Assembly: GCA_016183535.1 (NCBI GenBank)
Contig: JACPEK010000004.1
Coordinates: forward strand, 8,592 to 72,591
Reading direction: 5' to 3'
Source of the DNA: Candidatus Brennerbacteria bacterium
Lineage (GTDB): Bacteria > Patescibacteriota > Minisyncoccia > UBA6257 > GWB1-50-10
Length of the DNA stretch: 64,000 nt
The position numbers and the translations under genes are program-made. The notes beneath the pieces are model-generated. The model was not told the DNA's origin. It saw nothing but the letters and a program-made list of their open reading frames with translations, and searched no databases. Shown here piece after piece: positions 268 to 63,306 of the stretch; position 1 is the first letter of the stretch, and each line of letters begins with the position of its first letter.

Positions 268-2837
268 TTTGTGACGAAGTTTATGAGACGATCTTCCACA
301 TAAACCACCTTCTTCACCCCCCCGACGCCAAGCGCACTTATTACTTTGGCATCGGCGCGAACAAGCGCCTCCGCTTGCTCTTTCACTATACCCCGTGGCG
401 TCATTACCGTCGCGCGATGTTTGCCGTCCACCTGCACTACAAGCGGGAAAGTATCCTCCGCGATAAGCGATTCTTCATACGACGGCCACGGCGTACGATG
501 GATGGAATCCTCGTGCCCAAGCTCATGCCACAGTTCTTCCGCGAGATGCGGCGCGAACGGGGCGAGAAGCTTGATGAATGTTTCGAAGATACCTTTCGGA
601 GAAAAAACTCCCCACGCTCCCAAATTGTCCTTTTCTCTTTCGAGATAACCAAGTATAACCATCAATGCGCTGATTGCGGTGTTGTAGTGGAGATTTTCAA
701 TATCATTCGTAACGGCTCTGATGGTTTTGTGTAATGTTTTTTCCAAGTTTCTCTTTTCAAGAGTGGGTGTTTCTATCCCGGCGCGCATTCCACCAACCGA
801 CACTAAACGATCCGTGATCCCCGAGGGGGGGATTTTCAAACCGAGCTCACGTATCCTCCTCACAAACCGCACGATGCCCTGGATGCTCGCATCGCGGAAG
901 TCGCCACCCTGCTCGAAAGGCGCCAAAAACATGAGATACATCCGGAGCACGTCCGCGCCGTATTTTTTTATATACTCGTCGGGATTCACCACATTCCCCT
1001 TCGACTTCGACATTTTGGCGCCTTCTTTGATAAGGAGGCCATGAGCGCGGAATTTCGGGAACGGTTCCCCTCCAGGAGCGTCCGAAGAGCCGAACGCAAG
1101 GAGTTTTAAATCGTGGAGCGCGAGCGCCACAAACCGCACATAAAGAAGATGGAGCACCGCGTGCTCGGCACCGCCGGTGTAGAGGTGCACCGGAAACCAT
1201 TGTTTCGTGACAACGGGGTCCCAAGGGGCTTGTCCCAAGCGAGTAGCGCGAGTCGAGGGGTAACGGATGTAATACCACGCGGAGTCGAGAAAAGTGTCCG
1301 ACACATCGGTCTCGCGCCGCGCATCACCGCCACATCCCGGGCATTTTGTTTTATAGAATTCTGGCGCGGACCCGAGCGGTGATTCGTCTCCGCCCTCCGG
1401 ACGGAATTTCTCGATATAAGGGAGTTTGACGGGAAGTTCTTCCTCCGGCACCGCATACCAACCGGACATTTCGCTTTGTTCGCCTTTTCCCGCCGCCGCA
1501 CACGCTTCACAGAAAATCATGGGGATCGGCGCGCCCCAGTAGCGCTGGCGCGAGATGAGCCAGTCTCGAAGACGGAAACGCGTTTCGCGTTTCCCGCCGA
1601 CCACTTCCGCGATTTTCCATTTCGCCTCCTCGGATTTCATGCCGTCGAAGACGCCCGAACCCACAAGATGCCCCTCGCCCTCATACGCCTCGTCGAGCAC
1701 AGGGCATGTCGGTGCGGGATAGTGGGGACACACCACCATCACCACGGGAAGATTGAACTTCTGCGCAAATTCGTAATCACGCTTGTCGTGTGCCGGCACG
1801 GCCATGATCGCGCCCGTACCATATCCCGCGAGTACGTAGTCGGAAATCCACACCGGAATTTTTTCTTTATTCGCCGGATTCGCCGCGAAAATTTCGGTTG
1901 CAACTCCGGTTTTCTCTTTTTGTTTCTCCTCGCCCTCCGCGCGGCGCGCGAGCGCTTCATCCACGTACTCCGCGACCGTCTGCGAAGGTTGCCATCCCTT
2001 TTCCATCCATTCTTTTGCGAGCTCTGGCGACACCACTATAAACGTCGCGCCGAAGAGCGTGTCGGGGCGCGTCGTGAACACTTCAATCTCATCTGAAAAT
2101 TGAAAATCGGAAATAGGAAATTTTATGCTCGCTCCTTCCGATTTTCCGATCCAGTTCTTTTGCGCAATCTTCACGCGCTCGGACCAATCAATTTTCTCTA
2201 AGTTATCCAAGAGCCGCTCGGCGTACTTCGTGATGCGAAAAAACCACTGCTCGAGCTCTTTCACCTCTACCGCGGTGCCGCACCGCTCGCATTTCCCGCC
2301 GATCACCTGCTCGTCGGCCAAGACCGTCTTGCACGACGGGCACCAGTTCACCGCTTGTTTTTTTCGGTATGCGAGGCCGTGTTTCCACATCTGGACAAAA
2401 ATCCACTGCGTCCAGCGATAGTAGGCCGGGTCGTAGGTTTCGAGGCGTTCCTCCCGCGCGAATCCGTTCCCGATCGCGGAGAGCTGATCGTAGAACCGCG
2501 CCTCTGATATCTTCGCCTGCTCCATAGGGTGCGCGCCGATCTTCAGCGCATAGTTCTCCGAATGGATGCCGAAACCATCGAGGCCGATCGGTTCGAACAC
2601 GTCGTAACCTTCCATCCGTTTTTTTCTTCCGTAAATATCGGCGCCGGTGAACGCATACATATTCCCCACGTGGAGCCCTTCCGCCGAAGGGTACGGAAAC
2701 ATCATGAGGTTATAGAACGGCCCCTTACCTTTCGGATTATCCAAATCCGGTTCGTAGGTGCGGTTTTCTTGCCACACCTTCTGCCATTTCTTTTCTATTT
2801 CACCGAAATCGTATCGTTCGGAAGACATATCAATCAC
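264..2837 (-). CDS. leuS: Leucine--tRNA ligase (LeuRS)
   Basis: 857-aa ORF with class-I HIGH-region (HVGN) and KMSKS motifs and a CP1 editing-like region. The true start may be the internal MSSERYDF a few codons downstream. Confidence 0.95.
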   Translation of the reverse strand: MIDMSSERYDFGEIEKKWQKVWQENRTYEPDLDNPKGKGPFYNLMMFPYPSAEGLHVGNMYAFTGADIYGRKKRMEGYDVFEPIGLDGFGIHSENYALKIGAHPMEQAKISEARFYDQLSAIGNGFAREERLETYDPAYYRWTQWIFVQMWKHGLAYRKKQAVNWCPSCKTVLADEQVIGGKCERCGTAVEVKELEQWFFRITKYAERLLDNLEKIDWSERVKIAQKNWIGKSEGASIKFPISDFQFSDEIEVFTTRPDTLFGATFIVVSPELAKEWMEKGWQPSQTVAEYVDEALARRAEGEEKQKEKTGVATEIFAANPANKEKIPVWISDYVLAGYGTGAIMAVPAHDKRDYEFAQKFNLPVVMVVCPHYPAPTCPVLDEAYEGEGHLVGSGVFDGMKSEEAKWKIAEVVGGKRETRFRLRDWLISRQRYWGAPIPMIFCEACAAAGKGEQSEMSGWYAVPEEELPVKLPYIEKFRPEGGDESPLGSAPEFYKTKCPGCGGDARRETDVSDTFLDSAWYYIRYPSTRATRLGQAPWDPVVTKQWFPVHLYTGGAEHAVLHLLYVRFVALALHDLKLLAFGSSDAPGGEPFPKFRAHGLLIKEGAKMSKSKGNVVNPDEYIKKYGADVLRMYLMFLAPFEQGGDFRDASIQGIVRFVRRIRELGLKIPPSGITDRLVSVGGMRAGIETPTLEKRNLEKTLHKTIRAVTNDIENLHYNTAISALMVILGYLEREKDNLGAWGVFSPKGIFETFIKLLAPFAPHLAEELWHELGHEDSIHRTPWPSYEESLIAEDTFPLVVQVDGKHRATVMTPRGIVKEQAEALVRADAKVISALGVGGVKKVVYVEDRLINFVTK

Positions 2838-2843
2838 ATTCTA

Positions 2844-2913
2844 CCCCGCACCTTTTGTAGATGTAAACGCGAAGCGTTTCAATACGAATGCACGCTCCAC
2901 AAAAGGTGCGGGG
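2844..2913 (-). promoter_or_regulatory. Nested inverted repeat in the tatD-leuS intergenic spacer (15-bp outer arms ccccgcaccttttgt / acaaaaggtgcgggg enclosing an aaacgcttcgcgttt hairpin)
   Basis: Read directly from the sequence. It sits immediately upstream of the leuS start codon. No T-box consensus was seen. Confidence 0.35.
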
Positions 2914-2929
2914 TTCTAACCGACATTCT

Positions 2930-3751
2930 TCATATATGGAAAACGCGGGTAATATTTTCGCGGATCTGCGCGGCTATTTTCCCCACCGGCACATCTTTAA
3001 GCTCGGCGAGTTTTTTCACCACCTCGACCACATACGCCGGTTCGTTTCGCTTTCCGCGATAGGGTGCGGGCGTCACGTACGGCGCGTCGGTTTCGGAGAG
3101 AATGCGATTTAAGGGAATTGACCGGATTATTGCGTCGTAATCAGGCGTGAACGTGATGACGCCGCCGAAGGTGAACGAGAATCCGAGCGCGAGGAGATCG
3201 CCCGCTTCTTCCGCGGTACCGGTGAAAAAATGGATGATGCCGGGATTTTCCCTAGGAAGTAGCGAGTAGTTGGTAGTGAGTAGTTTCAAAAGATCGGGGA
3301 AGGCGGAGCGGCAGTGGATCATGAGCGGCTTCCTGATTTCTTTCGCGAACTTCACGTGTTCCATGAAAAGCGCGCGCTGTTTTTCTTTTGTTGCTTCGTC
3401 GCCGACCCTGAAATAATCGAGCCCACATTCTCCTACCGCCACCACGCTCGATTCTTCCGCAAGTTTCCCATAAAACTCCGCGTCAAAAATTTCCTCTCCT
3501 CCCGCGGCCTGCTCGTCGGGATCCGCGTATTCCGACGCGGAAGCGTGGCTCGGATGAATGCCGACAGCCGCATAGCAAAGATCAGGATAGGCGCGCGCGA
3601 GCACCGCCGCCGCCTCGGAAGTTTTCCGCGCCGTCCCCACGTTCACCATCCGTACTCCCGCCTCGCGGGCGCGCGCGAGCACCGCCTCGCGATCCTCATC
3701 GTAGGCGGAAAACTGCGCGTGAGTGTGAGCATCAAAATATTCGAAATTCAT
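2930..3751 (-). CDS. tatD: TatD-family metal-dependent DNase/hydrolase
   Basis: 273 aa with N-terminal FDAHTH and typical TatD TIM-barrel histidines. Confidence 0.85.
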   Translation of the reverse strand: MNFEYFDAHTHAQFSAYDEDREAVLARAREAGVRMVNVGTARKTSEAAAVLARAYPDLCYAAVGIHPSHASASEYADPDEQAAGGEEIFDAEFYGKLAEESSVVAVGECGLDYFRVGDEATKEKQRALFMEHVKFAKEIRKPLMIHCRSAFPDLLKLLTTNYSLLPRENPGIIHFFTGTAEEAGDLLALGFSFTFGGVITFTPDYDAIIRSIPLNRILSETDAPYVTPAPYRGKRNEPAYVVEVVKKLAELKDVPVGKIAAQIRENITRVFHI

Positions 3752-38760: not shown

Positions 38761-41313
38761 ATGGCACGCACCATTCACCCCACACCGGAAAAAGATCCGA
38801 AGAAAAAACCGGAGCAGGCGGCGCACGCCGCGCGGCGCGGAGCGGGGTCGCCTCCGCCCGCGGATTTACCCGCACCGGCGGGCGGCGTCGAAGCGCGCCC
38901 CATCGCGGACGAGCTCCGGGAGTCTTACCTCGACTACGCCATGTCCGTCATTGTGTCGCGGGCGCTCCCCGATGTGCGGGACGGCATGAAACCGGTTCAG
39001 CGAAGAATTCTCTGGGCGATGTGGGACCTCGGATTAACCCACGCCGCAAAGTTCAAGAAATCAGCGAATGTTGTGGGGGAAGTCCTCGGTAAATACCATC
39101 CGCACGGCGATATGGCGGTCTATGACGCGATGGCGCGCATGGCGCAAAATTTCTCCCTCCGCTACACCCTGGTCGACGGACAAGGCAACTGGGGTTCGAT
39201 TGACGGCGATCCTCCGGCGGCCATGCGTTACACAGAGAGCCGCCTCTCAAAAATCGCCGAGGAAATGCTCACCGACATCGAGAAGGAAACCGTCGTGTGG
39301 CGCGCAAACTACGACAGCTCCCGCCTCGAACCTTCTTATCTCCCTGCCAAACTCCCGAATCTCGTCGTGAACGGGACGGTCGGTATTGCCGTCGGCATGG
39401 CCACCTCGATCCCTCCCCACAACCTCGCCGAGGTCGCGGAAGCCCTCATTTATATCGCGAAGCATCCGGACATCGCGCTTGAAGAGCTCATGAGGTTCGT
39501 GCCGGGACCCGATTTCCCGACGGGCGGCGTAATTTACGACCGACGCGCGATCGCGAGCGCGTACCAGACGGGCCGCGGTTCCATTACCATGCGCGGCGTC
39601 GCCGAAATCGAGGAAGGAAAAAAGAACGCATTTCACATCATCATCACCGAGATCCCCTATCAGGTCAACAAATCCGACCTCGTGACGAAAATGGCGGAAC
39701 TCGTCACCGAAAAACGCATCGAGGGCGTAAGAGATATTCGCGACGAATCCGACCGCGAGGGGCTCCGGATTGTCTTGGATCTCAAAACCGACGCCGCGCC
39801 GCAGAAGATTTTGAACCAACTCTTCGAATACACCGAACTCCAGAAAAATTTCCACTTCAACATGCTCGCGCTCACAGACGGCCTCCAGCCGCAGATTCTC
39901 TCGCTCAAGGAGCTCCTCGCGGCGTACCTCGCCCACCGCGAAGACGTCATCCGCCGGCGCACCGCGTTCGATCTCGCGCGCGCGGAGGAACGCGCCCACA
40001 TCCTCGAGGGACTCGTGAAAGCGCTCGACGCGATCGATGAAGTCATCAGGATCATCAAAAAATCGGAAGACAAGGAGGAGGCGCGCGCCAACCTTATGAA
40101 AAAGTTTCAATTCACGGAAATGCAGGCGAATGCCATCTTGGAGATGCGTCTCCAGACGCTCGCCGCGCTCGAGCGTGAAAGGCTCGAGGGAGAACTCAAA
40201 GAAAAAAAGAAGCTCATCGGGGAATTGAAACTCATTTTGAAAACACCCGCGCGCATCACCGACCTGGTCATTGAGGAACTCGGCGAACTTAAAAAAGATT
40301 TCCCCGAACCGCGCCGCACGAAGGTTATTGCCTCCGGACTCAAGGAATTCAAGGATGAGGACTTAATCGCGAAAGAAGATATTGTGCTCGTCCTAACCGA
40401 AGACGGCTATCTCAAACGTTTGCCTCCCTCCGCTTTCCGTGCCCAGCGGCGGGGCGGCAAAGGCCTCATCGGTTTTGATCTCAAAGAAGAAGATCAGATA
40501 CGACAAATCACGGCGGCGACCACTCACGACAACGTGCTCTTTTTCACCGATCGCGGGCGCGCATTTCAAACCAAGGCGTATGAGATCCCCGTATCATCCC
40601 GCACCGCAAAGGGAAAATCAGTGTTGAACTTCCTCTCCGTTCCGCAAGGCGAAAAGATAACCGCGCTCGTCGCGTACGACGAGGCGGGCGCCCAAGGAAA
40701 GTTCCTCGCAATGGCGACAAAAGGGGGGGTTATTAAAAAAACCCCTCTCGGAGATTTTGCGAACGTACGCCGTTCGGGACTCGCCGCATTGAACCTTAAA
40801 AACGGCGACGCTTTACAGTGGGCGACGCTCTCTTCGGGAACGGATGAATTCATCCTTGTTACCGCGCAGGGAGCCTCTATCCGCTTCAAAGAAAAAGATG
40901 TCCGGCCGATGGGGCGGAGCGCCGGCGGCGTCGGCGCCGTACGCCTCAAAAAAGGAGACGAGGTCGCGGGACTTGATATAATAAGCGCGGGGGAAAAGTC
41001 AGAAATTAAAAATCAAAAGTTATTGGTCGTCATGTCGCGCGGTTATGCGAAACAAACACCCCTCAAAGAATACAAAGTTCAACGGCGCGGCGGCGGCGGG
41101 ATCAAGACCGCAAACGTCACCGAAAAAACCGGCCGCGTGATGGCCGCAATCATCGTGAGCGGAGAGGAAGAAGAGGTGCTCGCGTTTTCCTCGAAGGGCC
41201 AGGCACTCCGCACAAAACTCGCCGACATTCGCATCGCGGGTCGCGCCACGCAGGGAGTGCGCATCATGAATCTCGAGGCGGGGGATACCTTGATTGGACT
41301 TGTCTGCTTATAA
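38761..41313 (+). CDS. gyrA: DNA gyrase subunit A
   Basis: 850 aa with an active-site Tyr region (…AMRYTESRL…) and a C-terminal beta-pinwheel with a GyrA-box-like QRRGGKG motif. Confidence 0.95.
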
Positions 41314-41376: not shown

Positions 41377-42681
41377 ATGAATTTTACGAAAAACCAATTA
41401 ATTATTGCCGGTATTACGAGCTTTGTCGTGACGCTGGGCATCCTCGTGCTCGTCGGCGTTATTCCGGGCCTTCAATCATCGGATCCAACCGACGTTGCGG
41501 CGACGCTCGCTATATGGAATGTGGAGGATTCCGAAGGAGCCTTCGCGGCGGCATTCACCGCGTTCAGAACAAAATACCGCAACGTGACGTTCCAATATCG
41601 CTCGTTCCCCGATGAAGCGACCTACGAGGCGGCGCTTATCGACGCCTTGGCCGCCGGCGAGGGCCCCGATATCTTCGCCGTCCGAAGCGATAAAGTGCTC
41701 CGACACGCGAATAAGATGCTCCCCGCGCTCACCGCCATTACCCTGCCGGAGCTCCGAGCGCGTTTCCCTCAAATCGTGGAGAAGGATTTTTACCGCGCAG
41801 GGAGCGGTACCTACGCGCTCCCGCTCTCCATTGATACCCTCACGCTCTTTTATCACCGCGATCTTCTCGACACCGCGGGCGTCGCGAAAGTTCCCGCAAC
41901 CTGGGACGACATCCAGCGTACCGCGCCGCTCCTCACAAAAAAAGATTCTACGGGCGCGGTTCTACAGTCTGGCGTGGCGCTTGGCGGGCGCGCGGAAGAA
42001 ATCGAGGCGGCGATCGACACGCTCTATCTCCTTATGCTCCAGACAGGAACAAAGATGGGGGACGAGAGGGGAGATCGCGCCGCGTTCGATTCGGCGGAGG
42101 GTTTGAACGCTCTCCGTTTTTATCTCCAGTTCGGGAACCCGACTTCGGCATCCTACGCATGGAGGGGGAATCAGGGGAGCGCGCGGGTGCGCTTCGCGGA
42201 CGAAAAACTCGCTATGATGATTGATTATGCATCGGCCATCCCCGCGCTCGCCGCGCGGAACACGTTCCTCAACTATGGCGTGGCGCCCGTTCCCCAGCCG
42301 AAAGATGCGGGAAATGCGCTCACCTACGCTTCTTACTACGGCCTCGGCGTATCGCGCCGGAGCGCGAACCCTGCACTTGCATGGGAATTCATAACGACTG
42401 CGGCAACCTCGGAAGCGGCCGCGCAATCGTATGCCGAGGCGACCAAAAAACCTCCCGCGCTCCGATCGCTCGCAAACGCGTATGAGAGCGATCCGGTAAG
42501 ACGGGTGTTCGCGCGGCAAATTCTCACGGCCCGTTCGTGGCTTCAAACGGACCCTGACGCGATCCGCGCGTCATTTTCGAAACTCATCGAATCTGCGATT
42601 ATGAATCCTTCGGGGGTAGCCAACGCACTCCGCACCGCCGAGCGAGAAGTAACGGAGATAATAAGTCGTGGAAAATTCTAG
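41377..42681 (+). CDS. Extracellular solute-binding protein, family 1 (ABC-transporter-type substrate-binding protein), orphan
   Basis: 434 aa with an N-terminal signal/anchor and an SBP_bac_1-like fold (…LAIWNVEDSEGAF…YRAGSGTYALPL…). No permease or ATPase gene is adjacent. Confidence 0.7.
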   Translation: MNFTKNQLIIAGITSFVVTLGILVLVGVIPGLQSSDPTDVAATLAIWNVEDSEGAFAAAFTAFRTKYRNVTFQYRSFPDEATYEAALIDALAAGEGPDIFAVRSDKVLRHANKMLPALTAITLPELRARFPQIVEKDFYRAGSGTYALPLSIDTLTLFYHRDLLDTAGVAKVPATWDDIQRTAPLLTKKDSTGAVLQSGVALGGRAEEIEAAIDTLYLLMLQTGTKMGDERGDRAAFDSAEGLNALRFYLQFGNPTSASYAWRGNQGSARVRFADEKLAMMIDYASAIPALAARNTFLNYGVAPVPQPKDAGNALTYASYYGLGVSRRSANPALAWEFITTAATSEAAAQSYAEATKKPPALRSLANAYESDPVRRVFARQILTARSWLQTDPDAIRASFSKLIESAIMNPSGVANALRTAEREVTEIISRGKF

Positions 42682-42709
42682 GCGCGACAAAAGTTTTATA
42701 CTCTATCCA

Positions 42710-43126
42710 ATGAAGAAAACGGCGAGAGGGCGAATAGCGGCGGTAATAGCAGTGGTAATTTTCATAACGCTCACGGCGCCCGCATACGCCGGAGAGGGCA
42801 TCTGGAAGGACGCGAAGTGTGCGGCGGATTCGGCGGGTCCCACGAACCCCTGCGATTTCTGCGACGCTTTGGTTGTCGCCCGAAACATCGTGGGGACACT
42901 TCTCGAATTCGCGTTCCTCGCCGCGGCCGTCATGATCGCGGTAGGCGCGTTCATGATGATGTTCGCGGCCGGGTCAGAGGATCGCTTCAAATTGGGAAAA
43001 CAAACCATCCAGAACGCCGTGATCGGCCTTGCGGTCGCGCTCGGCTCGTGGCTCATCGTGAACACCATCCTCCAGTTCCTCTCCGGCAGGCCGGACCTGC
43101 CATGGAACAAGATCGCGTGCGGATAA
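42710..43126 (+). CDS. TrbC/VirB2-like type IV secretion system pilin family protein, paralog 1
   Basis: A signal peptide and two hydrophobic helices around the motif GAFMMMFAAGSEDRFKLGKQTIQNAVIGLAVAL. Confidence 0.7.
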   Translation: MKKTARGRIAAVIAVVIFITLTAPAYAGEGIWKDAKCAADSAGPTNPCDFCDALVVARNIVGTLLEFAFLAAAVMIAVGAFMMMFAAGSEDRFKLGKQTIQNAVIGLAVALGSWLIVNTILQFLSGRPDLPWNKIACG

Positions 43127-43173
43127 TCTGATACAATAGAATCCAAGCAAGTATGAAACATAAGGGGGCGATT

Positions 43174-43521
43174 ATGGGACTCATAATGATGATGGTGATT
43201 TTCGCCATCGCGCCATTTGCACTTGCGGGCGGACACGAGCCCCAAGGCAACGTCATTGAGCTCCCGAATCCTCTTGGCGCCACGAGCACACCCGCCGAGC
43301 TTCTCGATAAAATCCTCACCTTCCTTATCCAAATCGGCGGCGTCATCGCGAGCATTATGGTCATCGTGGGCGCGTTTCAGATGCTCTTCGCCGCGGGCGA
43401 CCCCGAGAAATTCATCATCGGCCGCCGCACCGTAATCTACGTCGCCGTCGGCTATGGTATACTGCTCATGGCGAAAGGAGTAACGCTCATCATTAAAGAT
43501 TTCCTTACCATAAAACCGTGA
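43174..43521 (+). CDS. TrbC/VirB2-like T4SS pilin family protein, paralog 2
   Basis: Motif VGAFQMLFAAGDPEKFIIGRRTVIYVAVGYGILL. An AAGGGGG RBS lies 6 nt upstream of the ATG at 43174. Confidence 0.75.
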   Translation: MGLIMMMVIFAIAPFALAGGHEPQGNVIELPNPLGATSTPAELLDKILTFLIQIGGVIASIMVIVGAFQMLFAAGDPEKFIIGRRTVIYVAVGYGILLMAKGVTLIIKDFLTIKP

Positions 43522-43553
43522 AAGGTCGATGAGTTAACGCGTTAAATAATCCT

Positions 43554-43904
43554 ATGAACAACAAGAAAGTAGTGTCAGCGATAGCGATAGGAGTCGCGCT
43601 CGCAACGCCGCTCATCGGCTTTGCGCAACCGACGACCGTAAGCGGTGTTACGAATCTCATAAATAAGGCGCTCGGAATCATTCAGTATGTGTTCTTTATC
43701 GTCGCGGCGATTTTCATTATCGTGGCGGCCTTCAAATATCTGACCGCGCAGGGCGACCCCGAAAAGGTAGGGGCGGCGCGCCAGATGGTGATCTACGCGG
43801 TGATCGGCATCGCGGTGGCGCTTCTCGCGCTCGTTATAGACAACATTGCGGCAGATTTTCTCGGAACCAGCGCTCCAGCTGAAATAACTCCGGGTAATTT
43901 TTAA
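43554..43904 (+). CDS. TrbC/VirB2-like T4SS pilin family protein, paralog 3
   Basis: Motif AAFKYLTAQGDPEKVGAARQMVIYAVIGIAVAL. Confidence 0.75.
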   Translation: MNNKKVVSAIAIGVALATPLIGFAQPTTVSGVTNLINKALGIIQYVFFIVAAIFIIVAAFKYLTAQGDPEKVGAARQMVIYAVIGIAVALLALVIDNIAADFLGTSAPAEITPGNF

Positions 43905-43924
43905 CCCGCGACATAGGGAATGAG

Positions 43925-43960
43925 AAAAACCGCTCCGGTTTAAACCGGAGCGGTTTTTTT
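43925..43960. terminator. Bidirectional rho-independent terminator after the pilin triplet
   Basis: aaaaaccgctccgg-ttta-aaccggagcggttttttt. Confidence 0.8.
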
Positions 43961-44010
43961 AAAAGAAAGCTCCGCAAATCATATATTTGCGGAGCGATAC
44001 ATTCGTTGAG

Positions 44011-44355
44011 TTAGTAGACGATGTCGACGAGCACCACATCGTCTTTCGGTCCCGAGAACCGGAAGGGGCCTGGTTTCTTTCCGTGCCATTCGGCGATCCA
44101 ACCGCTCGTCCCGTCGCCGAAGTGGATTCTTGCTTCCGGAGGGCCGGAGTAGTAAATACCCCGCGCCCCCTTGGGGTTCCCAATCGGATCGGTGAGGACG
44201 TTCTCGCCTTTGAGAACGACGACGATCCGATCGATTTTTTTCTCTGCTTTCTTATTAGCAGACAAAAACATGATTCCCCACACTATAAATCCGGAAATCA
44301 CGAGAAACCGGAGAAATTTCCATGCGTTTCCGGAAACGCCGTTTTCCTCTCTCAT
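44011..44355 (-). CDS. NfeD-like (short form) membrane protein partner of SPFH protein
   Basis: 114 aa with an N-terminal TM helix and a C-terminal beta-rich OB-like domain. It overlaps the upstream SPFH gene by 4 nt. Confidence 0.5.
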   Translation of the reverse strand: MREENGVSGNAWKFLRFLVISGFIVWGIMFLSANKKAEKKIDRIVVVLKGENVLTDPIGNPKGARGIYYSGPPEARIHFGDGTSGWIAEWHGKKPGPFRFSGPKDDVVLVDIVY

Positions 44356-45488
44356 AACTCGCCTCCTTTTTCCTCGCCAAACGCAGAAATGATCTGCGGA
44401 ATGATGATTTTGATCATTTCTCTAGTTTCCGGAGAGATATTAAGTTTGCTCTCCGTAATCATTTTTGTTACCTTCGAGCGCTCGGTTTGTATAACCTCAA
44501 GCGCCTGTTCGGAAGAGAAATTGTATGGCGGTTTCATAAGTTCTTCCACGAGTTTTTGCACGTGGGAGATTTCAAAACGCTCCGCCTTTCTCTCCTCTTC
44601 CTCTTTCGCCTCCTTCTCGGCGGCTTTCGCGACCTCTCCGAGAACCTTGACGTCTCCGACATTCAAACGCTCGATTTTAACGCCGAGGTCTTTAAGCACA
44701 ATACTGCCGGTGCCAGTGCGAAGTTTTTTGACCTCCTCTCGCCGTGATTTCACCGCGGTTTTGAGATCTTCTTTTTGAGTATCAACGAGTGGGTCGTATA
44801 CCTCATTCACTCGCTTCCAACCGTCTTTCATCCACTCCTCCTCGCTCTTTGAGGTCGGAAGGGTGGGTCGCGGCTCCATGAAATATCCCATCCATATTAC
44901 CGTCGGTACGCTCTGCGCATACGACGGAATTTCCGTAATGGAATTCAAGCCGATCGTCTTTGTGAGCACGCTCGTGGCTTCAAGGCGAGATTTTTGGAGC
45001 TCTTTCCAGTCCTGCGGACCTTCCTCGTCGGAAATGGCCCACTCGCGGACGCGCTCCTCTATCTTTCCGTTCAACTGCGTCTCAATGCCGGCGTGGCCAC
45101 CGTTGTTGAGAAATTCGATAAAATGCTCGTCGAGCGGACGGTAGGTGATGGCGATCGGGATTTCCGAATCCGCCAGGTCGGGTGTTTTTGTCTTTACCAC
45201 AAATTCCTTCGAGATCCTCGTAACCGGCACCAGAACAAAGCCGAACACGAACGGGAAAAAAGGGAAAAAATTCCATCCTTCCTTTAATGTCTTTTTCTGT
45301 CGCGCCCCAAGAAAAGTGAGTACACCTTTCTGCGGCGGCTCATTCGGAATATTCCTCAACCCTTGGAGAAGAAATGATCCCGCGACGGCGACGAAAGCGG
45401 TAATGCCGAGGACCACATGAGAAAAGACAAAAAGAGAGAATAAAAGCACAAAGATAAGAACCAATGCGCTCATAACTGTCCTTTTCAT
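44352..45488 (-). CDS. SPFH/band-7 (stomatin/prohibitin/flotillin-like) domain protein
   Basis: 378 aa with N-terminal TM helices, a PHB/SPFH core (…EGWNFFPFFP…IAITYRP…) and a C-terminal Glu/Lys-rich coiled coil. Confidence 0.7.
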   Translation of the reverse strand: MKRTVMSALVLIFVLLFSLFVFSHVVLGITAFVAVAGSFLLQGLRNIPNEPPQKGVLTFLGARQKKTLKEGWNFFPFFPFVFGFVLVPVTRISKEFVVKTKTPDLADSEIPIAITYRPLDEHFIEFLNNGGHAGIETQLNGKIEERVREWAISDEEGPQDWKELQKSRLEATSVLTKTIGLNSITEIPSYAQSVPTVIWMGYFMEPRPTLPTSKSEEEWMKDGWKRVNEVYDPLVDTQKEDLKTAVKSRREEVKKLRTGTGSIVLKDLGVKIERLNVGDVKVLGEVAKAAEKEAKEEEERKAERFEISHVQKLVEELMKPPYNFSSEQALEVIQTERSKVTKMITESKLNISPETREMIKIIIPQIISAFGEEKGGEL

Positions 45489-54651: not shown

Positions 54652-55413
54652 ATGCGGATGTATTTTCATTTTCTTCGTCTGCCACACAAGCGCCGCGCGC
54701 TCCTCGCGGCCGCCATCCTCGCCGCTTCGATCGGTGTGAGCGCCTACTTCGTGGCGTCTTCCGCGCCGAATACTCCTCCGGCGTTTTCGGGGTCGCTAAC
54801 GCCAATAGTTGCGCACGCCGACCCCGCGCCTGAAGCGTCCAACCTCACCCAAGAGTTTACCCGGCAAGCCGTCGAGAAGCTCATCACCGACAACGAACCG
54901 CTCAAGGCGGAAGGCGCGGCACTTGAAGCGTATGCCGTCATCCCCGACGCGCCCGACGTCGCCGTCATCGTTTCAGAACTCATCGACCGCGAGCTTACGA
55001 CCGAACAACTCAAAACATCCGACCTCCTGACGCATGAATCGAACTCGAAAGAGATTCAGCTCGCCTACCTCTTTTTTATAAATGAAATTCTTGAAACGCA
55101 GGGGGGTGAAATGCCGGCGCTCGGCGCGGGTTCTCTCGCCACATACTTCACCGACACCGCGGCGAAGCTCCATGAAACCGCGGAGATTTTGAAAGCGGTG
55201 AAGACTCCTTCTTCTTGGCTCCCTCTCCACCGCGATCTCGTCGCATTCTTCCTCCGGCAGGGAAATATTTATCGCTCCCTCGGCGCGGCGAACACGGATC
55301 CGCTCCGGTTTATGATCGCGGCAACGCGCCTTCTTCCCGCCGAAACCGAGCGCGAGTTTCAAAAACTGCAGGCGACGATCGATCAAAAAATAAAGGATGA
55401 AAAGCTCATCTAG
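54652..55413 (+). CDS. Membrane-anchored or secreted helical protein, unknown function
   Basis: 253 aa with an N-terminal hydrophobic anchor. It overlaps the next gene by 17 nt. Confidence 0.5.
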   Translation: MRMYFHFLRLPHKRRALLAAAILAASIGVSAYFVASSAPNTPPAFSGSLTPIVAHADPAPEASNLTQEFTRQAVEKLITDNEPLKAEGAALEAYAVIPDAPDVAVIVSELIDRELTTEQLKTSDLLTHESNSKEIQLAYLFFINEILETQGGEMPALGAGSLATYFTDTAAKLHETAEILKAVKTPSSWLPLHRDLVAFFLRQGNIYRSLGAANTDPLRFMIAATRLLPAETEREFQKLQATIDQKIKDEKLI

Positions 55414-58908: not shown

Positions 58909-60366
58909 ATGGCATACGACACGCTCGCCGATGATCTCCTCTTGCTCTTCCCCACATGGGAAGAGGGGATATGGGAAGCGCTCCAGAAAAAACAGTACCG
59001 CGCGGCCGCGGAACGCTTCGCGATCCTCGTCCGTTCCATGAACCCCGACGAGCGACGGAGTATCGCGTGGGGCACCACGATCCGCGGCGTGCCCGCGGCG
59101 CGGGGGGCGGTAACCGAATCGGAATGGGAACGCGAGGTCCGACCATTCCTCATCAGAGAATTCCTCGAAATCGCCACGGGGCGGATCGTAGCCGACGTCC
59201 TGAACGGTTTTGATCCGCAAGATCGAATTTTGATCTTTAAAACGTTCATAACCGCCATCCCCGGCGGAAGTCCGGAAGAAAAACAACAGTGGCTCGCGCG
59301 CCAAAAATCCACCTCGGCGTCCTATTTCCTCGCGACACCGGCGCAAATCTTCGATCCGTCGGCGCCCGGAACAGATCGCGAAATTTCTCCCGACCTCGCC
59401 GTGAAAAAATTCCTCTCGCTCACAAACACGCTCCAGCGCATCATTTTTACTTACGACACGGCGGAAACCATCCATCGCGCCGCAACGGAAAATCTCCTCG
59501 ATGCCGCGAAAACCCGCGCCGTGGCGCGCGTAGCGGGTCGCGTGCTCGTCGGGTTCGAGGCTCCGCACCACATCGCTAAAACGATCGGAAACGAGGCCAT
59601 CCTCGACGAAAAAACCTCGGAAACGCTCGCGCGGGAATTCCGTTCGCGGATTTTCGCGCCTATTTTCTCCGATCTCGAAGAGGCGTATGAACCGCCAGAG
59701 GATTTTAACGAAACGGCGAAAAAAATTTTTGAGGGGTCGACGGTTGAAGCGAACGTTCCGTCGTTCGCTGAATTTCACCGGAACCCGCCGTCGTCTCCCT
59801 TGTTCCAAATTCCCATCGCGCGCGGCGAAAACACATTCCCCGCGAAAGACACGAAGCAAGCCGCACCCGCGCCTTTCGTCCTCCACGATGAGCGCCCTTT
59901 CGCGGACGCGGCAAAAAAAGAATCCATGAAAGGTTTTTCTTTGCCGTTCGGTCTTTTTAAACCGAAATCCGCTCCCTTCGGAGCGGTGCCTAAGGCGACC
60001 GTGGAAGCGCCCGCTTCCGTCTCCGCTTTCACAAAAACCCCGGAGAATAAAGAAGAAAAAAAGGTGGTGCACTACAGCGAATACCGCACCGATTCCTTGT
60101 CTGAAACCGAGGGCGAGGTTATCAATCTTGAGACCTTCGGACGGGTACGAATGAACACGGATGGAACCGCAAATACCGCAAATACTCCAGCGGTGACGCC
60201 TCCGTCTCCGCCACCAATTACAATCAGCACCGATGAGCACGACGGGTCGGGTATGACTCCTCCATCGAATATAACGATCAAAAAATCGGAGGTGCCGCTT
60301 CCCAATCCGCCGCCTTCACCAGGAAACGCGCCTGCCCTAGAAGGAAATATTGTTGACCTTCGGTAG
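58909..60366 (+). CDS. Hypothetical protein with Pro/Thr-rich C-terminus
   Basis: 485 aa with no TM helix. It is embedded in the cluster between the VirB6-like and VirB3-like genes and overlaps the next gene. Confidence 0.45.
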   Translation: MAYDTLADDLLLLFPTWEEGIWEALQKKQYRAAAERFAILVRSMNPDERRSIAWGTTIRGVPAARGAVTESEWEREVRPFLIREFLEIATGRIVADVLNGFDPQDRILIFKTFITAIPGGSPEEKQQWLARQKSTSASYFLATPAQIFDPSAPGTDREISPDLAVKKFLSLTNTLQRIIFTYDTAETIHRAATENLLDAAKTRAVARVAGRVLVGFEAPHHIAKTIGNEAILDEKTSETLAREFRSRIFAPIFSDLEEAYEPPEDFNETAKKIFEGSTVEANVPSFAEFHRNPPSSPLFQIPIARGENTFPAKDTKQAAPAPFVLHDERPFADAAKKESMKGFSLPFGLFKPKSAPFGAVPKATVEAPASVSAFTKTPENKEEKKVVHYSEYRTDSLSETEGEVINLETFGRVRMNTDGTANTANTPAVTPPSPPPITISTDEHDGSGMTPPSNITIKKSEVPLPNPPPSPGNAPALEGNIVDLR

Positions 60367-60868
60367 TATGGCGACCTTCCAGATTCCACAATTCATTGAG
60401 CAACAACCGAAGGTGGTCGGGTTTCTCACGCTCCCGCAGTTCCTCTATCTCGCCACCGCGGGGGGGATAAGCTTCGCCGCATTTTACGTGTTCACGTTCC
60501 TACTCTGGCTTTTTGTGAGTGTGGTGGTCGTCGCGGCCGGCATCGCGCTCGCCTTCATAAAAGTGAACGGTCAGCCGCTCCCCGCGGTGCTTCGCGCCGC
60601 GCTCTCCTATTATTGGAAACCGCGCACATACGTATGGTCCCGCGCGCTTCAGGAGGAAACGCTCGATCTCTCGCAGATTGAGAAAATAGAAGCGCTCCGG
60701 AGACGGATGGGAATCGAAGAAAAATTAAAAAATCTCGCTCTTCAGGTAACGACAGGGAAGATTTTTTCGCGGCGCGGAAACGCTACGAACCCGCGCGCGC
60801 GCTACCAAACCGTCACCTACCTCACGGGAGAAAAAAAAGTCGCGCGGCGCGTGGATTACGGAGCGTAA
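60350..60868 (+). CDS. VirB3-like / PrgI-TcpE-like two-TM small membrane protein
   Basis: 172 aa with two adjacent TM helices near the N-terminus. It sits immediately upstream of the VirB4-like ATPase, as in Tn916 orf17 and Tcp systems. Confidence 0.5.
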   Translation: MLTFGSMATFQIPQFIEQQPKVVGFLTLPQFLYLATAGGISFAAFYVFTFLLWLFVSVVVVAAGIALAFIKVNGQPLPAVLRAALSYYWKPRTYVWSRALQEETLDLSQIEKIEALRRRMGIEEKLKNLALQVTTGKIFSRRGNATNPRARYQTVTYLTGEKKVARRVDYGA

Positions 60869-60886
60869 TCAGGGTAAACTCTACTT

Positions 60887-61528
60887 ATGCCAAAAGAAGC
60901 GACCGCACCGACGCAACAACTTGTCGCCGTCAAGGAAATTCGCGACGGAGTCGTGTACCTCAAGCGGGGCGGGGTGCGCCGCGTGCTTATGGTGAGCGGC
61001 ATCAATTTCGAGCTGAAATCCGAGGAAGAGCAAAACCTCATTCTTGGAAGCTTCCGGAATTTTCTCAATACGCTCGATTTTTCCGTCCAGTTCTTCATCC
61101 ATTCACGGAAGGTGAATGTGGCTCCTTATCTCGCCTCGCTCCGCGCCCGCATGGAGGAAGAACCAAACGAGCTTCTCAAGATTCAGATCGGCGAATACGC
61201 CGAATTCATTCGTGCCTTTGTGGAAGAAAATGCCATTATCGCCAAAACATTCTTCGTCATTGTGCCGTATGAACCGGCGATTTCCGAAAAAACACGGGGA
61301 GGCATCATGTCTCTCTTTAAAAAAGCAATTCCTGTGGAAACCTTGCGCGGAGAGAGTGTCCAAGAGATGCTCTCCCAACTCGAGCGACGCGCGAATCAAG
61401 TAATCGACGGCCTCTCCCAAACAGGACTCCGCGTAACGCCGCTCGAGAACGATGCGCTCGTGGAACTTTTCTATAATCTCTACAATCCGGAATTCACCGA
61501 AAAGAAAAAAGGCGCGGAACAGCGCTAA
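60887..61528 (+). CDS. VirB4-like conjugal-transfer ATPase, N-terminal fragment or subunit
   Basis: 213 aa. …IRDGVVYLKRGGVRRVLMVSGINFELKSEEEQ…LDFSVQFFIHSRKV… resembles the N-terminal domain of Gram-positive VirB4 homologues (Tn916 Orf16/TcpF-like). Confidence 0.6.
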   Translation: MPKEATAPTQQLVAVKEIRDGVVYLKRGGVRRVLMVSGINFELKSEEEQNLILGSFRNFLNTLDFSVQFFIHSRKVNVAPYLASLRARMEEEPNELLKIQIGEYAEFIRAFVEENAIIAKTFFVIVPYEPAISEKTRGGIMSLFKKAIPVETLRGESVQEMLSQLERRANQVIDGLSQTGLRVTPLENDALVELFYNLYNPEFTEKKKGAEQR

Positions 61529-61554
61529 AGAAAGCTTCCGGCAATTTTTCTCCC

Positions 61555-63306
61555 ATGGAACAAGAAATTAAAAAATCCCATGAAGTGTCTCCCGAGGACA
61601 TTGGTAACATCATTGCGCCCGCCGGCGTTGAGGTGTCCTCGCACCATCTGAAACTCGGCGATTACTACGCCAAAACGCTTTTTCTCTTCGCCTATCCGCG
61701 CTACCTTCCGAGCGGATGGTTTTCTTCTTTGGTCAACCTCCCGGAGATGCTCGATGTTTCCATTTTTGTCCATCCGACCGACACCTCGCTCGCGCTTAAA
61801 AAGCTTCGAAAAAAAGTGGCGCAGGTGCAGGCGGAAATGATGGAGCGGGAAGAAAAAGGACTTGTGCGCGATCCTGTTCTCGAAACCGCGTATCAAGACG
61901 TGGAAAGTCTCCGCGACACGCTTCAGCAGGCCCAGGAAAAACTCTTCAAAGTGGGCGCGTATCTCACTATTTACGGGAAATCTCTCGAAGAACTCGCGAA
62001 ACTTGAGGATAAAGTGCAATCACTCCTCGAGGCGCGACTGGTGAACATAAAATCGGCGCTCTTCCGCCAGGACGAAGCGTTTCTCTCGGTACTTCCTGCG
62101 GGAAACGATTTACTCGCCGTTATCGCTCCCATGAATTCCGGCCCCGCGTCGTCTTTTTTTCCTTTCGTCTCACCCGATCTCACCTCCGACCGCGGTATCC
62201 TCTACGGCGTAAATCTCCACAATCAGTCGCTCGTGATTTTCGATCGATTTTCGCTCGAGAACGCGAACGAGGTGGTCTTCGCAAAATCGGGCGCCGGAAA
62301 GTCCTACGCGACAAAGCTCGAGGTTCTCCGGTCTATGATGCTCAACACCGACGTCATCGTGATTGATCCCGAAAACGAGTACCAAAACCTCGCGAACGCG
62401 GTGGGGGGGAGTTATTTCAAAATTTCGCTCACGTCTCCAAACCATGTGAATCCCTTCGATATTCCCCTCATTCCGGAGGGTGAAGAGCCGGCGGACGTGT
62501 TCAAATCGCACGTATTAAACCTCACGGGACTCGTGAAACTCATGCTCGGGTCCATAACCGCGGAGGAAGATGCGCTTCTCGACCGCGCGATCACGGAAAC
62601 TTACGCCTCGCGCGATATCACCGCGGAAAATTTCGGAACCACGCAGACGTTGAATCCTCCACTCCTCGAAGACCTCCAGACGATCCTCTCTTCGACCGAA
62701 GGAGGTCGCGGCATCGCCACGCGCCTCGAGAAATTCGTGCACGGTTCGTACGCCGGCTTCACGAACGCTCCCACGAACGTAGACGTGAAGAACCGCCTTA
62801 TTATCTTCTCGATCCGTGATCTCGAGGAAGAACTCCGCCCCATCGCGATGTACATCGTGCTGAACTTCGTGTGGAACCTCGTGCGCTCAAAACTCAAGCG
62901 CCGTCTCCTCGTGATCGATGAGGCGTGGTGGATGATGAAGTACAAAGATTCTGCGTCGTTCCTTTTTGGCCTTGTAAAGCGCGCGCGAAAATATTACCTC
63001 GGCGTTACCACTATCACGCAGGATGTCGAGGATTTCCTTCACTCCGAATACGGGCGGCCCATTGTGACGAACTCCTCGATCCAGCTTCTCATGAAACAGT
63101 CCCCTGCCTCGATCGGAGCGGTTGCCTCGGCGTTCGACCTCACGGAGGGCGAAAAGCTACTTCTCCTTGAGGCGGGGGTGGGGGAGGGCCTCTTCTTCGC
63201 GGGACTGAAACACGCCGCGATAAAAGTCATCGCCTCCTACACCGAGGATCAAATTATCACCACCAACCCCGAACAAATGCTCGAGATCAAAGGACTTAAA
63301 GTATAA
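61555..63306 (+). CDS. VirB4-like conjugal-transfer ATPase, C-terminal fragment or subunit (Walker A/B)
   Basis: 583 aa. …IIAPAGVEVSSHHLKLGDYYAKTLFLFAYPRYL… is a VirB4 signature segment. It has Walker A FAKSGAGKSY and Walker B LLVIDEAWWMM. It is in a different frame from the N-terminal ORF, with a 27-nt gap. Confidence 0.8.
   Translation: MEQEIKKSHEVSPEDIGNIIAPAGVEVSSHHLKLGDYYAKTLFLFAYPRYLPSGWFSSLVNLPEMLDVSIFVHPTDTSLALKKLRKKVAQVQAEMMEREEKGLVRDPVLETAYQDVESLRDTLQQAQEKLFKVGAYLTIYGKSLEELAKLEDKVQSLLEARLVNIKSALFRQDEAFLSVLPAGNDLLAVIAPMNSGPASSFFPFVSPDLTSDRGILYGVNLHNQSLVIFDRFSLENANEVVFAKSGAGKSYATKLEVLRSMMLNTDVIVIDPENEYQNLANAVGGSYFKISLTSPNHVNPFDIPLIPEGEEPADVFKSHVLNLTGLVKLMLGSITAEEDALLDRAITETYASRDITAENFGTTQTLNPPLLEDLQTILSSTEGGRGIATRLEKFVHGSYAGFTNAPTNVDVKNRLIIFSIRDLEEELRPIAMYIVLNFVWNLVRSKLKRRLLVIDEAWWMMKYKDSASFLFGLVKRARKYYLGVTTITQDVEDFLHSEYGRPIVTNSSIQLLMKQSPASIGAVASAFDLTEGEKLLLLEAGVGEGLFFAGLKHAAIKVIASYTEDQIITTNPEQMLEIKGLKV

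Follow-up and report, generated by a model that had tools for sequence, protein, structure and literature searches.

Why should the gene of a carbohydrate-type solute-binding protein (SBP) stand directly in front of a row of pilin genes, with no transporter genes beside it? This question is raised by a 64,000-nucleotide stretch of contig JACPEK010000004.1 from a Candidatus Brennerbacteria bacterium; the whole stretch is called the window below. A reading made from the sequence alone (the sequence-only reading) had described four plus-strand open reading frames (ORFs), an SBP followed by three small proteins resembling VirB2/TrbC-type pilins of type IV secretion systems (T4SS). All four are present in the ORF listing:

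41377-42681, plus strand: SBP, 434 residues, MalE-type (CUT1, family 1); PF01547 SBP_bac_1, 94.3 bits (cutoff 26)
42710-43126, plus strand: pilin 1, subfamily A, 138 residues; PF18895, 24.8 bits, just under the cutoff
43153-43521, plus strand: pilin 2, subfamily B, 122 residues, with an NPLG motif and GAFQxLxAxGDPEKF; PF18895, 39.6 bits
43554-43904, plus strand: pilin 3, subfamily C, 116 residues, AAFKYLTAQGDPEKV; PF18895, 42.1 bits

The intergenic gaps, from the SBP to pilin 3, are 28, 26 and 32 bp, and the curated cutoff of PF18895 (T4SS_pilin) is 26.6 bits. The four genes probably make up a cell-envelope operon with four parts that is conserved in a large clade of Paceibacteria and, in many genomes, is co-transcribed with gyrA. 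With the chances about evenly balanced, we propose that the SBP, specific to this clade, serves as a carbohydrate receptor or as a capture module alongside the T4SS pilins.

The conservation of the arrangement was studied by scanning one genome per species with an SBP alignment as query. Relatives were found in 358 genomes, and the best 80 were taken with 10-kb flanks; they belong to Brenner-, Jorgensen-, Wolfe- and Liptonbacteria and to other Paceibacteria. In all 77 of these 80 loci that extend past the SBP gene, it is followed directly by two to seven same-strand pilin ORFs, most commonly three (38 loci) or four (17 loci). The SBP also stands directly before the pilins in 23 of 23 SBP-bearing loci obtained from pilin-centred look-ups and a pilin-seeded metagenome scan, and the order is the same in the three more distant SBP relatives (L171-L173). 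Overall, the junction is present in 103 of the 103 loci with downstream sequence, so that SBP and pilins occur together in all related loci examined and the arrangement is not an assembly artefact. The median gap between the SBP and the first pilin is 7 bp, and many loci show 4- or 1-bp overlaps of the stop and start codons. This junction is uninterrupted throughout; about nine loci, by contrast, show a break or rearrangement where gyrA meets the SBP, and the pilin arrays take insertions. Directly upstream of the SBP, gyrA was found in 68 loci (median gap 20 bp, with frequent overlaps). The tight operon coupling of SBP and pilins favours a role of the SBP as a receptor or adaptor of the pilus.

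The SBP gene had been described as devoid of permease and ATPase partners. Indeed, no ATP-binding cassette (ABC) ATPase and no EAA-motif permease was found in the 64-kb window. When the search was extended to 173 loci (2.04 Mb, flanks of 7-10 kb), no EAA-motif permease was detected, and the sole ABC ATPase was paired with an exporter-type ABC2_membrane gene; the Pfam-annotated neighbourhoods likewise contain no SBP-type permease or ATPase. The sequence-only reading had considered that a missing neighbour might mislead, with permease genes adjacent to the SBP in other assemblies. This fails: the SBP precedes pilins in all 103 loci, and no SBP-type permease lies in their 7-10 kb flanks. The SBP is thus consistently a local orphan.

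These results bear on a first and main alternative, in which the SBP is an ordinary CUT1 importer component. Its permease and ATPase would be encoded elsewhere, and its place before the pilins would be inherited synteny of a housekeeping operon with no functional link. CUT1 SBPs normally adjoin their permeases, yet no SBP-type permease or ATPase lies within the flanks of more than 100 SBP loci. Nor would simple synteny readily account for the SBP-pilin junction being the most conserved of the region and often translationally coupled, or for the SBP being kept by all members of a clade that is very large and poor in genes. In the literature, nothing usable was found on ABC sugar permeases in Paceibacteria/Parcubacteria. 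We regard this explanation as possible, though doubtful; if it were true, the conserved synteny would be of modest interest only. The points in its favour come from the protein itself and from the history of the locus, both described below.

We then considered the SBP protein. A protein identical to it is annotated in a metagenome-assembled genome of Candidatus Brennerbacteria. A profile built from 20 SBP homologues was searched against the PDB. The top match was 5ci5 (2.9e-29), followed by binders of trehalose/maltose, arabino-oligosaccharide, sulfoquinovosyl-glycerol, acarbose and maltodextrin. The AlphaFold2 model of the SBP (predicted local distance difference test score, pLDDT, 94.3) has two lobes, and Foldseek places it nearest to MalE-like binders of oligosaccharides (TM-scores 0.65-0.75, identity 14-22%; E 1e-21 to 1e-24 for 5ci5, CbpB, MalE and GacH). 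The invariant columns of the family are rich in aromatic residues, and the aromatic and acidic residues typical of sugar binders are kept. As modelled, the SBP has kept a complete fold, one typical of oligosaccharide binders. This full, high-confidence MalE-like fold and the match to the family-1 hidden Markov model (HMM) are also what an importer component would present.

The N-terminus of the SBP reads MNFTKNQLIIAGITSFVVTLGILVLVGVIPGLQSSDP. The sequence-only reading had taken the protein for a lipoprotein. Since residues 1-45 contain no cysteine, there is no lipobox, and the protein is predicted to be held instead by an N-terminal transmembrane (TM) helix, residues 5-26, followed by GVIPGL. 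Across 69 homologues, this anchor (residues 1-33, window positions 41377-41475), with MxLTKxQ and, after it, G(V/I)IPG(L/F), is as conserved as the globular domain, while the linker (residues 34-43) is variable. Plain signal anchors are seldom conserved to this degree, and the pattern hints at a dedicated partner within the membrane. A class III (prepilin) signal, as in the archaeal bindosome, was considered and rejected. The consensus M-x-L-T-K-x-Q-hydrophobic, read by eye, carries neither the [KR][GA] cleavage motif before the hydrophobic stretch nor a Glu at +5.

The identification of the three small proteins as VirB2/TrbC-type pilins, of a family common in Patescibacteria, was borne out. 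Pilins 2 and 3 exceed the PF18895 cutoff, and pilin 1 is connected to them by profile comparison (hhalign probability 99.5%). With PF04956 (TrbC/VirB2), the three proteins score 22.4, 26.5 and 25.6 bits, all below the 27.9 cutoff but significant (E 1e-4 to 7e-6). The motif said to be shared among them is real in the alignments. Each consists of a signal peptide and two hydrophobic helices separated by a short charged loop (AGSEDR or GDPEK). The signal-peptide sites read from the sequences are of the AXA type, AYA|G, ALA|G and GFA|Q. In agreement, the AlphaFold2 model of pilin 3 shows a signal-peptide helix and a helical hairpin (29-64/69-103) with a QGDP loop. For pilin 1, the start codon chosen is the ATG at 42710 and not the upstream GTG (42668) from which the ORF had been taken to run; the independent gene call in the identical contig L001 also gives 138 residues. 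A pilin HMM run over the window retrieved no further pilin gene. Antisense to pilins 1 and 2, a 209-residue ORF (42703-43332, minus strand) is almost certainly spurious, though a naive longest-ORF caller takes it over the real pilin genes.

The proteins had been called a paralog triplet. Their homology is clear, as the profiles of the three subfamilies match one another with hhalign probabilities of 99.5-99.9%, but they are not recent duplicates. The best out-of-locus match of a first-position pilin is also in first position in 70 of 77 cases, and the same holds for 66 of 75 second-position pilins and 61 of 70 last-position ones. Extra middle-position pilins resemble the last one, so that middle and last form one subfamily. 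Because best matches keep their position, A, B and C are ancient orthologous subfamilies in a fixed order. Subfamily C (consensus AAFKYLTAxGDPEKV) is the one amplified in other genomes. In subfamily A, some four cysteines are conserved: three precede TM1 and the fourth belongs to a PWxxIxC motif at the C-terminus. Their counterparts in pilin 1 are Cys37, Cys48 and Cys51, ahead of TM1, and the C-terminal Cys137. As the VirB2 topology puts both termini outside, the C-terminal cysteine of pilin A could plausibly, on geometric grounds, form a disulfide with the cysteines clustered near the N-terminus; by analogy, such a bond could mimic the head-to-tail cyclisation of VirB2/TrbC.

The cysteine-bearing pilin bears on another alternative, in which the SBP-fold protein has no transport function and no small ligand, and acts outside the cytoplasm as a chaperone of the pilins or a factor in their assembly, above all for A. 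Most loci with an SBP have an A-type pilin behind it, and no such pilin was seen in an SBP-less clade; the SBP and pilin A are translationally coupled and the TM anchor is conserved, all of which would suit such a factor. However, loci L113, L138 and L141 possess the SBP without an A-type pilin, the protein keeps the invariant aromatic and acidic residues that sugar binders typically have, and no pilin chaperone with an SBP fold is known to us from any T4SS. We therefore judge a chaperone role to be very unlikely. An obligate pairing of SBP and pilin A, prompted by locus L089, was weakened by the same three loci and by the single event seen for the SBP on the gyrA tree described below. The A-type pilin itself shows 12 apparent changes on that tree, scored with an A-type regular expression that is too crude.

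In related loci, several pilins carry additional domains. Subfamily-A pilins with 150-300 residues of extra extracellular sequence at one or both ends were observed at L013:11247-12380, L033:11437-12534, L043:1478-2749, L049:1358-2518 and L067:6937-8127; the extensions consist of Cys-rich repeats or of a CarboxypepD_reg Ig-like domain and look adhesin-like. Fusions of the pilin hairpin with a lysozyme-like SLT_3 domain (PF18896) are found at L070:6773-7609, L082:5566-6516 and L166:4826-5752. Judged from their domains, these would be VirB2-VirB1-type fusions and would put a cell-wall hydrolase on a pilin scaffold. In locus L090, two ORFs (544-1167 and 2631-3230) each encode two consecutive PF18895-type hairpins. 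Because pilins of other lineages bear SLT_3, Ig-like and Cys-rich modules, the hairpin serves as a scaffold that carries functional modules at the cell surface. In at least 13 genomes, a same-strand gene for a PMT-family O-mannosyltransferase (PF02366 92 bits, PF16192 79 bits) follows the pilin array (cluster c15 in L002-L081 loci, and L173; for example L026:13000-14358 and L173:11589-13412). It directly adjoins the array in about ten, and is absent from the window. Because of this gene, the pilins or the SBP may be glycosylated.

The limits of the transcription unit were defined by the following features:

38761-41313, plus strand: gyrA (PF00521/PF03989, from the identical contig L001), 63 bp upstream of the SBP
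43923-43960, both strands: bidirectional intrinsic terminator hairpin, a 17-bp perfect stem with an A-tract before and a U-tract after
43969-43995, minus strand: second hairpin, terminator of the convergent minus-strand genes (44011-45488), from sequence and fold

A plus-strand scan found no terminator between gyrA and the SBP, and gyrA is probably in the same transcription unit as the SBP and the pilins. Downstream of pilin 3, the strong bidirectional terminator that had been noticed in the sequence is there; folded together, the two hairpins reach -45.4 kcal/mol (z = -10.3 versus shuffles). The convergent genes are an SPFH/Band_7 gene (44352-45488, minus strand) and, overlapping it by 4 nt, an ORF for a 114-residue membrane protein without family match (44011-44355, minus strand); both point towards the pilin operon. 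Many related loci likewise have an SPFH gene here (clusters c13, c22 and c34; L082 and L086).

A T4SS-like cluster had been placed 10 kb from the operon. It starts about 10.7 kb downstream of the pilins, with a first candidate gene at 54652, and it contains PrgI/VirB3-like and VirB4 genes:

60350-60868, plus strand: PrgI/VirB3-like gene, in the zone 16-18 kb downstream that also holds VirB4
60887-61528, plus strand: TrsD-like gene, 213 residues, matching the N-terminal part of VirB4 models
61555-63306, plus strand: VirB4 of the CD1110 family (Gram-positive), 583 residues, 365.9 bits (cutoff 325)

VirB4 thus seems to be split into a TrsD-like protein of 213 residues and a 583-residue ATPase (60887-63306, plus strand), and the same split occurs in locus L166. 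Presumably, the region 60350-63306 is the core of a chromosomal monoderm-type T4SS served by the pilins. No relaxase or coupling protein was identified among the annotated genes of the window.

The distance of some 10 kb to the T4SS and the attachment of the operon to gyrA in many genomes leave room for a third alternative. The hairpin proteins would form no pilus; they and the SBP would make up a membrane complex independent of the T4SS, which might be a sensor or an unconventional, SBP-dependent channel for uptake. In line with this idea, a pilus has yet to be demonstrated for a monoderm T4SS (PMC12857230). On the other hand, the proteins match PF18895 and show sub-threshold TrbC homology, and pilins fused to the VirB1-like SLT_3 exist. 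In addition, L166 has orthologues of B and C in one contiguous cluster with VirB4. The order there is PrgI, TrsD-like, VirB4, two genes, pilin-SLT_3, one gene, then B-C-C-C, without an SBP, and the VirB4 is 64.5% identical to that of the window. This layout ties B and C pilins physically to a T4SS. Orthologues of B and C also lie inside the T4SS cluster of Southlakia epibionticum, where the six-pilin array SEML1_0014-0019 is essential and the published tables show no SBP (Wang et al. 2023, PMC10633639). A T4SS-independent complex is very unlikely in our estimation.

The evolution of the locus was examined next. The conserved block comprises FtsH and S1 genes on the opposite strand, Lactamase_B_3 - small gene - gyrA - SBP - pilins, a variable region with SPFH, an opposite-strand xerC gene, and rpsO - NYN - pnp. 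Another layout, gyrA - methyltransferase - SBP - pilins, is found in L171-L173. The methyltransferase is a small class I S-adenosylmethionine-dependent enzyme of about 171-182 residues (L089:7091-7606, L171:6443-6988, L172:6444-6992 and L173:6453-6989). It lies between gyrA and the pilins in the SBP-less clade or between gyrA and the SBP, and is absent from the window's clade. That methyltransferase and SBP exclude each other in the slot between gyrA and the pilins was ruled out by L171-L173, which carry both. In L173 (2406-6449), gyrA encodes 1347 residues and contains an intein (PF14890).

Several observations weigh against a functional bond between SBP and pilins. On a gyrA neighbour-joining tree, the presence of the SBP changes only once, so that the association has no independent replication. 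A sister clade has gyrA - methyltransferase - B - C, with neither the SBP nor an A-type pilin, and the essential array of S. epibionticum has no SBP. The gyrA, Lactamase_B_3 and methyltransferase genes are in the same co-directional block. Furthermore, the search for permeases was confined to flanks of 7-10 kb. Because gyrA and the methyltransferase are equally co-operonic and the genomes are streamlined, membership of the operon alone cannot prove a shared function. The single gain or loss, the pilins kept by the SBP-less sister clade and the co-operonic gyrA and methyltransferase are also the arguments for the importer explanation. Since the SBP changes once on the tree, its association with the pilins is not a repeated co-gain; the SBP is best seen, from the sequences compared, as a clade-specific add-on, gained or lost once and then universally retained. 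The layout of the sister clade indicates that the pilins function without it.

In the proposal of a receptor or capture module, the SBP would be an accessory, clade-specific addition and not a core component of the pilus. After export by Sec and cleavage by signal peptidase I, the pilins would enter the membrane as helical hairpins whose two ends face outwards. A pilus or conduit would be built from them by the monoderm-type T4SS (VirB3/VirB4) that the chromosome encodes 10-17 kb downstream. The SBP would stand on the outer face of the membrane beside the T4SS apparatus and bind a carbohydrate-type ligand from a host or partner cell. It may thereby act as receptor, adhesin or substrate-capture module for the pilus/T4SS and not as the feeder of an ABC permease. 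The three fixed pilin classes, since they are orthologous across loci, point to a heteromeric structure rather than to antigenic variation alone.

In the sole genetically tractable member of the Patescibacteria, both the T4SS and its pilin array are essential (PMC10633639). A carbohydrate-type binding protein hard-wired before pilin genes in several hundred Paceibacteria species would provide an expressible bait for a ligand of this system. It would offer a direct test of the role of the pilus/T4SS in host recognition or nutrient acquisition. In S. epibionticum, SEML1_0634 adjoins secG and a holin-family gene, not permeases (PMC10633639, Supplementary Table S1); it is a further SBP that is a local orphan and yet important to a patescibacterium. 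A published link between SBPs and pilins was not found in the literature searched, which is not proof of absence.

Finally, the arrangement can be compared with known systems. The window's SBP resembles the MalE/CUT1 SBPs (5ci5, 1eu8, CbpB 7x0i and E. coli MalE 3puy) in its family-1 HMM match, two-lobe fold, size and aromatic-rich conserved positions. It differs from them by the absence of adjacent MalF/MalG-type permeases or MalK ATPase in more than 100 loci, by a motif-bearing TM anchor in place of a lipobox or cleaved signal peptide, and by its translational coupling to pilin genes. That a sugar-binding protein can report to a T4SS has a precedent in ChvE of Agrobacterium, a periplasmic protein which signals host sugars to the T4SS regulon via VirA. 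However, ChvE is encoded apart from virB2 and supplies an ABC transporter as well, and the operon described here contains no sensor kinase. Dedicated binding proteins such as VirB5, CagL and PrgB give T4SS pili or channels their target specificity, with folds unrelated to that of the SBP.

In the bindosome of Sulfolobus, sugar-binding proteins are assembled by the Bas type-IV-pilus-like system (PMC3047682). Both cases tie sugar-binding proteins to a pilus-assembly-type machine, genetically and, here putatively, in function and in display at the cell envelope. The archaeal proteins carry class III signal peptides, depend on a type IV pilus-like machine and still feed ABC transporters, whereas in the present case the N-terminus of the SBP does not fit a class III signal and the partners are VirB2-type T4SS pilins. 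A bacterial counterpart of the bindosome, in which a hitherto unrecognised SBP-dependent route of capture and uptake through the T4SS pilus or channel replaces the ABC permease, is in our view unlikely. The anchored MalE-like protein would recognise a host glycan or glycoconjugate and pass the ligand, or a contact signal, to a VirB2-type conduit. If true, this would give a mechanistic clue to why the T4SS of Patescibacteria is essential. Uptake of host molecules by the T4SS/pilus has been a matter of speculation in a 2025 review, which also states that no monoderm T4SS pilus has yet been seen (PMC12857230).

The closest relatives of the array are the VirB2-like arrays of Patescibacteria, of which 441, with 2-11 genes each, were described as widespread and without detected adhesins (Quinonero-Coronel et al. 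2025, PMC12102498). Like them, the present array is a chromosomal tandem of PF18895/PF04956-type genes, divergent within the array, within about 20 genes of a monoderm-type virB4 and without relaxase or coupling protein among the window's annotated genes. The text of that study mentions neither solute, nor substrate-binding, nor ABC, whereas here the array is headed by a family-1 SBP and fused to the gyrA operon. The published arrays were read as variable paralogues for host-range or antigenic variation, whereas here the pilins fall into three position-fixed orthologous subfamilies. Tandem pilin arrays were therefore already known; what sets this locus apart is the conserved SBP head gene, the fixed A, B and C pilin classes and the gyrA operon context.

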